From: Escherichia coli | GTDB taxonomy: Bacteria; Pseudomonadota; Gammaproteobacteria; Enterobacterales; Enterobacteriaceae | DNA length: 64,000 nt | NCBI RefSeq assembly: GCF_041248615.1 | Contig: NZ_CP158426.1 | Strand: one strand, 5' to 3' | Shown here: positions 57,841-59,000 of the stretch, one piece after another | Layout: every line of letters starts with the position of its first letter | Numbering within the stretch: position 1 is the stretch's first letter | Made by a program: the position numbers and the translations under genes | Notes under the pieces: model-generated | The model's database searches: none | What the model saw: the letters and a program-made list of their open reading frames with translations, nothing else | What the model was told of the DNA's origin: nothing

Positions 57841-59000
57841 CTGACAATAGCCATATCGAATCGCTTCCGGCAACTCGTGAGGAAAAAGATTCGGTATCAG
57901 AAGAGGTGAGTATGGCTAACGCCTGGCTCAGATTATGGCATGACATGCCAAATGACCCTAAGTGGCGAACAATTGCCAGGGTGTCAGGGCAGCCAATTGC
58001 AACAGTGATGGCAGTGTATATCCACCTCCTGGTGAGCGCGTCACGAAATGTCACGCGAGGTCACATTGATGTCACGACAGAAGATTTGGCAAGTGCGCTC
58101 GACGTGACAGAAGAGGTAATTGATTCAATTTTGCAGACGATGCAGGGGCGGGTACTTGATGGTGATTTAATCACTGGATGGGAAAAACGCCAGGTGCTTA
58201 AAGAGGACAACGGCAATATTTCGCAAACCGCAAAATCTCCTGCAGAGCGCAAGAGGGCGCAGCGAGAGAGGGAAAGAAAGCGGGAACAAAATGGCGATTG
58301 TCACGGCGCGTCACGAAATGTCACGCACATGTCACGACGAGTCACGACAGATAAAGATACAGATAAAGATACAGATAAAGATACAGATACAGATCAAGAA
58401 GATCAAAACACTATGGTCCATGGCGTAAAAAACGCCACGAACCAGGCAGGGGATGTTCAGACCGTCAATCTTGGTCAGCCAGCAGGCACGACACCGGAAG
58501 CCGATTCAGCGTATGCGCTGAAAGCCGATTCGGGCGCTGTGCAGCAGGTGATGACCGCAAGGCCGGAGCAATCACACCAACTGCAGCAGCCTGAAGCCGA
58601 TTCCGCCATTCAGCGGGAAGCCGATCGGGTAGTCCCGGAAAACACCGGGCAGCCTGTGGGACGAGTAGATTATCCGGATGTGTTCGAACAGGTCTGGCGG
58701 GAATACCCGTTGCGTGCTGGGGCAAACCCGAAGAAATCCGCTTTCAGTGCTTGGAAGGCCAGATTACGCGAGGGGGTGCCACCAGAGGCCATGCTGGATG
58801 GTGTGAGGCGTTACGCAAGATACCTGGCGGCTACCGGGAAAACGGGAACGGAATTTGTTCAGCGAGCGACGACGTTTTTTGGACCGGACCGGAATTTTGA
58901 AAACCCCTGGTTTCTCCCGGTAAGCAGTACGAACAACCAGCGTTGTGTGAATCATATTTCTGAACCGGATACCGAAATTCCACCGGGCTTCAGGGGGTAA
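57837..59000 (+). CDS. Phage replication initiator-like protein (replisome organizer / O-like) containing internal iterons
   Basis: 387 aa; position after immunity region; internal iteron-like repeats and low-complexity DKDT repeat. Confidence 0.55.
   Translation: MTDNSHIESLPATREEKDSVSEEVSMANAWLRLWHDMPNDPKWRTIARVSGQPIATVMAVYIHLLVSASRNVTRGHIDVTTEDLASALDVTEEVIDSILQTMQGRVLDGDLITGWEKRQVLKEDNGNISQTAKSPAERKRAQRERERKREQNGDCHGASRNVTHMSRRVTTDKDTDKDTDKDTDTDQEDQNTMVHGVKNATNQAGDVQTVNLGQPAGTTPEADSAYALKADSGAVQQVMTARPEQSHQLQQPEADSAIQREADRVVPENTGQPVGRVDYPDVFEQVWREYPLRAGANPKKSAFSAWKARLREGVPPEAMLDGVRRYARYLAATGKTGTEFVQRATTFFGPDRNFENPWFLPVSSTNNQRCVNHISEPDTEIPPGFRG
58038..58350. repeat. Two clusters of iteron-like GTCACG repeats at about 10-bp spacing, including an exact 19-bp direct repeat GCGTCACGAAATGTCACGC
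   Basis: Cluster 1 58038-58080 (4 copies), cluster 2 58299-58350 (5 copies); 19-bp repeat at 58038-58056 and 58308-58326. Confidence 0.8.
58350..58394. repeat. Tandem 12-bp repeat (GATAAAGATACA)x3 plus partial unit
   Basis: Read directly; encodes DKDTDKDTDKDTDTD in the replication gene. Confidence 0.85.

Follow-up and report, generated by a model that had tools for sequence, protein, structure and literature searches.

The question raised by this locus is why a short motif, GTCACG, recurs in two clusters inside a single gene of an Escherichia coli prophage, located at positions 57912-59000 of a 64-kb stretch of contig NZ_CP158426.1 (RefSeq assembly GCF_041248615.1; the whole stretch is called the window below). 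In lambdoid phages the origin iterons, which are bound by the initiator, lie within the initiator gene, and the original prediction had taken the two clusters, together with a tandem repeat that follows them, for the origin of replication (ori) of a prophage. The open reading frame (ORF) was predicted to be a phage replication gene, and it indeed matches PHROG 3729 ("replication initiation protein") over its full length (E = 7e-254). We propose that the repeats are quite probably the site at which vegetative replication of a lambdoid prophage starts, and that this origin lies within the gene of its own initiator. This proposal is drawn from sequence comparison, and every prediction of the ori reading at the sequence level was borne out. 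The design itself is familiar and lambda-like, and the origin family appears to be undescribed and very widespread; no description of these repeats or of the family was found in the searchable literature, subscription journals being outside its coverage.

The number of GTCACG copies in the window as a whole (22, with 19.8 expected) is unremarkable, while nine of the 22 fall in the interval 58040-58346, for which about 0.095 copies are expected per 307 bp (Poisson P(≥9) = 1.6e-15). The clusters, referred to here as array 1 and array 2 (coordinates of all features are listed in the table), were expected to show roughly helical-turn spacing, and the spacing is 10 or 11 bp. The informative iteron unit is the 6-bp GTCACG itself, directly repeated every 10-11 bp, with flanking positions carrying at most 0.7 bit. 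Array 1 encodes amino acids (aa) 43-55, that is, the end of a helix (29-45) and the loop that follows it (46-55), and varies in copy number, six units being present in E. coli OkiPb01676 and in E. albertii. Array 2 encodes aa 130-145, part of a disordered linker, and consists of three to six copies in relatives, with a motif class that is always that of array 1. The two arrays were also predicted to share an exact 19-bp direct repeat 270 bp apart; the separation is correct, and the exact repeat is longer, at 21 bp (GCGCGTCACGAAATGTCACGC). A similar two-hexamer unit, GTCACG(A/C)AATGTCACGC, is common to both arrays in other loci. The context of the lone inverted copy, GACGTGACAGA, is kept in most loci of the GTCACG class. 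The arrays of GTCACG-class loci are about 260 bp apart and those of CGAACGC-class loci about 231 bp; as these distances correspond to no consistent number of helical turns, no claim of phasing between the arrays is made.

The hexamers are selected as DNA sequence and not as peptide. They occupy the reading frames 2, 0, 1, 0 in array 1 and 1, 2, 0, 2, 0 in array 2, i.e., all three frames, and thus do not form a peptide repeat. Third-position entropy was compared in 20 diverged relatives of the GTCACG class at conserved amino acid columns that are at least four-fold degenerate: it was 0.34 bit at the eight columns of array 1 and 1.67 bit at 30 columns outside it (Mann-Whitney p = 1e-4), where synonymous third positions are effectively saturated. 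The codons of V47 (GTC), T48 (ACG), G50 (GGT), and V54 (GTC) are invariant in 20/20 loci, and the third base of R49, a spacer position that provides an internal control, varies freely. A peptide-repeat explanation was rejected on the strength of the reading frames and the frozen synonymous sites. A scan of viral contigs yielded only near-identical E. coli copies, which were used for population variation and not for covariation; among these 73 prophage copies the hexamers never vary and single-nucleotide polymorphisms are confined to the spacers. In a more distant E. coli variant, array 1 has two additional hexamer units (a 7-aa insertion), and array 2 carries a compensating +1/-1 indel pair by which one spacer changes from 10 to 11 bp and the next one from 11 to 10 bp.

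Homologues of the N-terminal domain (N-domain) of the predicted initiator were gathered from genomes and metagenomes, and the same two-array layout was found in about 45 loci of gamma-, beta-, and alpha-proteobacteria, with array 1 about 130 nt into the gene, array 2 at about 330-450 nt, and a purine-rich AT tract directly after it. The repeated motif differs by lineage (GTCACG, CGAACGC, GCAACGC, GTAACGC, and GAAACGC; general form GnnACGC), one locus (L115) carrying a different repeat. Both arrays bear the same motif in 39 of the 39 callable loci (24 GTCACG, 12 CGAACGC, one GCAACGC, and two GTAACGC) with no discordant locus; if a single protein binds both sites, 230-260 bp from each other, their motifs would be expected to switch together in this way. 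Hosts and flanking genes vary, yet the arrays stay with the N-domain: the Pseudomonas aeruginosa module includes another CII together with a Toprim-DnaB helicase, and metagenomic loci have other neighbours, among them in some cases a DnaB-like gene. Exchanges of the C-terminal half of the gene leave the arrays with the N-terminal half, and the breakpoints, at gene positions 458-494, are inside the tract. In Pseudomonas prophages (L085, P. aeruginosa CP065865, 3001-5725) the N-domain with both arrays and the tract constitutes a stand-alone 160-aa protein, followed by a 135-aa ORF and then by a Toprim-DnaB primase-helicase; the origin-binding module can thus be paired with quite different helicase solutions. 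We also observed that in many relatives (L085 3455-3485, L094, L097, L098, L117, and K-12 ydaU, L083 5632-5665) CCCCCCnnAnCCCCCC...GGGGG, which codes for PPLNPPRG, comes after the AT tract; this is either a G/C-rich inverted repeat or a conserved peptide opening the C-terminal part, and it is absent from the window allele.

The tract that follows array 2 is a candidate DNA-unwinding element. The original prediction described three copies of GATAAAGATACA after the arrays, which holds as the exact core of a longer hexamer/12-mer tandem repeat, four full copies of ACAGATAAAGAT at 58347-58394 with 97% matches (Tandem Repeats Finder). The 66-bp tract is 71% AT and 71% purine, and the lowest duplex stability of any 50-mer in the operon (57100-59500, promoter region included) is that of 58351-58400, with a free energy (dG) of -54 compared to a mean of -69. 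In about 40 relatives such a tract stands directly after the phased array; mean values for the 36 bp that follow the last iteron are 67% AT and 74% purine there, the loci overall being 43% AT, and the tract start is nearly always (C/T)AGATAAAGATA. Even where the host is 55-70% GC, AT pairs and purines continue to prevail in the tract. In the 26 loci with at least 55% GC, GAT and GAC codons are in the ratio 68:4 within the tract and 185:287 in the rest of the gene (p = 1e-20), and AAA and AAG codons in the ratio 42:11 versus 137:197 (p = 2e-7). Among the 73 near-identical E. coli prophage copies the tract comprises 2-9 hexamer units, always in multiples of 6 bp, and the window allele ranks with the longer ones. 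Array 2 and the tract together encode aa 130-167, which are disordered in the protein model, following the folded aa 1-98. No DnaA boxes were found in 57800-58600. An inverted repeat of uncertain role stands just beyond the tract, where lambda ori, too, carries a palindrome. Two GATC (Dam) sites, at 58391-58394 and 58400-58403 and thus 9 bp apart, were noticed at the distal end of the tract; GATC is found at the matching spot in K-12 ydaU and in several enterobacterial relatives.

Features of the candidate origin and its initiator gene in the window (CDS, coding sequence; RBS, ribosome-binding site)
Feature	Position	Strand	Details
Replication initiator gene, 362 aa	57912..59000	+	ORF, RBS GAGGTGAGT; 1089-bp CDS
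Predicted winged-helix DNA-binding domain (aa 1-98), CDS	57912..58205	+	AlphaFold model
Iteron array 1	58040..58076	+	GTCACG at 58040, 58050, 58071; GTCACA at 58060
21-bp exact repeat GCGCGTCACGAAATGTCACGC	58036-58056 (copy 1); 58306-58326 (copy 2)	+	270 bp apart
Lone inverted GTCACG (CGTGAC on + strand)	58103..58108	-	
Iteron array 2, candidate core origin	58300..58346	+	GTCACG at 58300, 58310, 58320, 58331, 58341
AT-/purine-rich tract	58347..58412	+	(ACAGATAAAGAT)x4 at 58347-58394 + CAAGAAGATCAAAACACT; candidate DNA-unwinding element
Inverted repeat	58414..58444	.	13-nt arms TGGTCCATGGCGT / ACGCCACGAACCA, 5-nt gap; just beyond AT tract, role uncertain
C-terminal tail QRCVNHISEPDTEIPPGFRG, CDS	58938..58997	+	resembles host DnaT C-terminus

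The initiator is modelled as a winged-helix N-domain (aa ~1-98), a basic helix and disordered linker (~100-200), and a C-terminal domain (~206-362). In the AlphaFold2 model, which was built from a 27-sequence alignment, confidence is high for the winged-helix core of aa ~10-98 and lower for a helix at 110-127, and disorder is seen at aa 134-163; the fold of the modelled N-domain is of the DnaD N-terminal domain (NTD) winged-helix type. The protein showed no significant family in Pfam, NCBIfam, or PADLOC, and no Rep family matches were found. Phage_rep_org_N (PF09681) aligns along its own length at sub-significant scores (E = 0.13-0.25), with none of 20 members reaching E ≤ 0.001. A sequence search of solved structures with the N-domain returned no match, and a relation to lambda O was not detectable (hhalign probability 0.1; no Phage_rep_O match in Pfam). 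The RefSeq and Tritos annotators name the family "phage replisome organizer" (Tritos is a deposited phage that carries the same module; see below), and the C-terminal part matches PHROG 1701 and 9327, named DnaD-like helicase loader and primosomal protein.

The last 20 residues of the initiator, QRCVNHISEPDTEIPPGFRG, are nearly identical to the C-terminus of E. coli DnaT (PDB 9zbt_D 160-179; also 2ru8 and 6aep). K-12 YdaU ends in the same tail (IPPGFRG), and the last ~60 nt are common to otherwise different E. coli prophage replication genes. DnaT acts in the loading of DnaB-DnaC at replication restart (PMC13220808). The presence of a DnaT-like tail together with the lack of a loader gene suggests direct recruitment of the host helicase machinery, with the tail as candidate recruitment peptide; it may represent mimicry of a host replication-restart protein.

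In the scheme that we propose, transcription from the early rightward promoter would lead to synthesis of the initiator, whose winged-helix domain would bind the hexamers and form a head-to-tail nucleoprotein filament on array 2, the hexamers, one helical turn apart, all facing the same side of the helix. Extra binding sites would be offered 260 bp upstream by array 1, which may strengthen or loop the complex. The resulting strain would melt the adjoining tract, and the C-terminal domain with its DnaT-like tail would bring in host DnaB-DnaC, since no phage loader gene is present; theta replication would then start as it does at lambda ori.

Several observations weigh against this proposal. No binding or replication data for the initiator family were found in the literature searched. 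The 39 loci share descent, and their complete concordance may amount to only about three or four independent motif switches. The tract doubles as a recombination junction and as the code for a DKDT linker, from which part of its conservation could stem. The predicted recognition helix (aa 67-77) is acidic, and no class-specific residue was found in it, features that do not account for the way in which the N-domain would read the hexamer. The integrase of an identical prophage in E. coli strain XDL (L129 12488-13538) is annotated as frameshifted, so that this prophage copy may be defective or unable to excise even with an intact origin. Finally, array 1 is absent from three loci (L120, L122, and L133) and reduced to two copies in another (L119). 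Array 1 is thus not essential to the design, of which array 2 and the tract form the core, and the upstream array within the CDS of the DNA-binding domain is probably auxiliary.

With the recognition helix acidic and free of class-specific residues, a further idea was considered, namely that the loop encoded by array 1 (aa 44-56) may itself set the hexamer specificity, so that site and reader would share the same nucleotides. When GTCACG-class and CGAACGC-class proteins are compared, the only folded-domain residues that separate them are aa 47, 48, and 51, all encoded by array 1 (linker positions 108-109 also differ). These three residues, on the other hand, are dictated by the iterons anyway, the loop accepts insertions of 7-20 aa, and some lineages do without array 1; we consider the idea rather doubtful. 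If true, one stretch of DNA could switch both sides of the origin specificity at once.

Three rival explanations were weighed against an origin function, and they are weaker in that none of them accounts jointly for frozen synonymous positions, motifs that switch in concert, and a tract selected for AT. The arrays might be binding sites for the initiator or another early protein with a purely regulatory function (autoregulation by a roadblock within the gene, control of copy number through array pairing, or the exclusion of related phages), and replication would then start at some other place. Array 1 would suit such a function, being only 130 bp into the ORF, within the CDS of a folded domain, and dispensable in some lineages; arrays 230-260 bp apart could pair, and plasmid iterons serve both initiation and control. 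However, the least stable, AT-selected tract invariably adjoins array 2, the arrangement of an initiation site like that of lambda, and no other array or candidate origin is present in the 46-kb Tritos genome. We regard a solely regulatory function as unlikely, and a regulatory role of array 1 would be compatible with array 2 as the origin.

It could also be argued that the repeats have no function at the DNA level and are by-products of coding or recombination, arising from a low-complexity DKDT linker, a linker that joins modules, or slippage-prone duplication of GTCACG. The tract does code for DKDTDKDT and behaves as a variable number tandem repeat of 2-9 units, the N- and C-terminal halves of the gene recombine exactly there, the same tract stands beside an unrelated initiator (K-12 YdaU), and both arrays code for the peptide SRNVT in the same frame. 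Yet slippage or drift predicts neither hexamers in all three frames, nor synonymous sites frozen in a gene that is otherwise saturated, nor concerted motif switching in both arrays, nor GAT and AAA codons kept despite the GC pressure of the host, and we consider this explanation very improbable. Equally little credence is given to the view that the arrays are read by a different protein, such as the CII/YdaT-like product of 57415-57840 or a host factor, for transcription control or packaging. In its favour, the predicted recognition helix of the initiator is acidic; but the arrays follow the N-domain across hosts, differing neighbours, and exchanges of the C-terminal half, and the region offers no DnaA boxes.

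Among the closest known systems is lambda ori in gene O (Shiga toxin (Stx)-phage variants included), where, as proposed here, the origin is located in the linker-coding part after the N-terminal DNA-binding domain, and repeats of the initiator site are followed by a promoter-distal AT-rich tract that is purine-rich on the coding strand. The annotated order of the lambda origin on the coding strand is four iterons, purine-rich AT tract, and recombination marks; the junctions of hybrid phages lie just beyond the AT tract, and here a junction is also found at the tract. In both systems extra iterons add residues to the protein, and the gene order cI / cro / cII / initiator / ren is common to both, with the P gene missing here. 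Lambda iterons each have internal dyad symmetry and are spaced about 20-24 bp apart. They are annotated as 18 bp in length, whereas the unit here is a 6-7-bp direct repeat every 10-11 bp. The second array 260 bp upstream, in the CDS of the DNA-binding domain, is a further difference from lambda, and the initiator is unrelated to lambda O by sequence, with a DnaT-like tail in place of a P-type loader gene. In lambdoid phages the AT tract is the site of DNA unwinding (PMC7466680).

The "replisome organizer" naming and the modelled DnaD-NTD-like winged-helix N-domain give the initiator a likeness to G38P of the Bacillus phage SPP1. The SPP1 origin oriL lies within gene 38. G38P is a replisome organiser that binds the phage origin, and SPP1 also possesses another origin, oriR, and encodes a loader and a helicase itself (PMC5615212), whereas Tritos has a single array locus and no annotated loader or helicase gene. 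In protein type the initiator may be closer to the SPP1 replisome organiser, with two features of the SPP1 type not found. More distant comparisons can be made with satellite phage P4 and with plasmids. In P4, ori and crr are two separate clusters of the octamer TGTTCACC, both cis-acting and bound by the initiator; the P4 alpha protein differs in being a primase-helicase, and the P4 clusters are kilobases apart. Of the attributes of an iteron-type plasmid origin (direct repeats of ~17-22 bp, a Rep_3-type initiator, and DnaA boxes) none is found here.

The ydaU-ydaV genes of the K-12 Rac prophage occupy the same position in a related Rac-like early region, and ydaU has (A/G)TGTTCAA direct repeats followed by AATAAAGATACAGATAAAGATCT and codes for the IPPGFRG tail, so that layout and AT tract are as in the window. 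The N-domain of YdaU (DUF1376), by contrast, is not detectably related to that of the initiator, the repeat sequence differs, and a DnaC-like gene, ydaV, follows. Identity of the window locus with the K-12 Rac ydaU/oriJ region was rejected, as the replication module differs and the N-domain is unrelated. In ydaU (L083, NC_000913, 5260-5640) the main repeat cluster is at 5472-5590, and copies at 5263 and 5348 lie upstream of it. An active origin, oriJ, is reported for Rac (PMC3945230), and its mapped position was not found in the searchable literature. An AT tract common to unrelated initiators suggests where oriJ may lie, and by analogy the ydaU repeat region may be considered a candidate location.

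The initiator gene is flanked by an opposite-strand repressor gene, a Cro-like gene, and a CII/YdaT-like gene (57415-57840), and is followed by a Ren-like gene. Identical DNA, spanning the 1,089-bp initiator gene that was compared, is found in E. coli strain XDL, where it belongs to a lambdoid prophage at tRNA-Ser beside mtfA. The replication module is also present in deposited phage genomes, e.g., Tritos and Evi. In Tritos (46 kb, deposited as a complete genome with a full lambdoid gene set) it is the sole annotated replication gene, GTCACG arrays occur across the whole genome in this gene only, and no helicase or loader is annotated. Of 5426 complete E. coli genomes, 2491 contain DNA of at least 80% identity to at least part of the gene, and in 1646 such DNA covers at least 80% of it; the N-domain family comprises about 3000 clusters at 50% identity across the proteobacteria. 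Despite this commonness RefSeq usually labels the gene "hypothetical protein", as it does the identical 1089-bp CDS in strain XDL. A known origin would supply an annotation rule for such prophages and would give a compact vector replicon of one protein and ~200 bp, with several specificities found in nature, which may be orthogonal to one another. The family is a natural series in which the joint change of initiator and origin specificity can be studied, and the DnaT-like tail points to a route of host helicase recruitment without a phage loader. The system merits follow-up for how common it is, for an array that falls within the coding sequence of the DNA-binding domain itself, and for the co-switched specificities.

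The surrounding region of the window is Rac-like, with a RecE-type exonuclease, DicB, and DicF. The DicF small RNA was located at 55438-55489 (-) by Rfam, which also identified a sok antitoxin RNA at 61662-61986 (+), overlapping a hokD-type toxin ORF, and a tRNA at 50923-51009 (+), probably the attachment-site tRNA-Ser. Just downstream of the replication module, at 59702-61036 (-), is a gene for a 444-aa FRG-domain protein that matches the PADLOC candidate defence family PDC-S15 (E = 7e-99), and this gene is also carried by phage Tritos.

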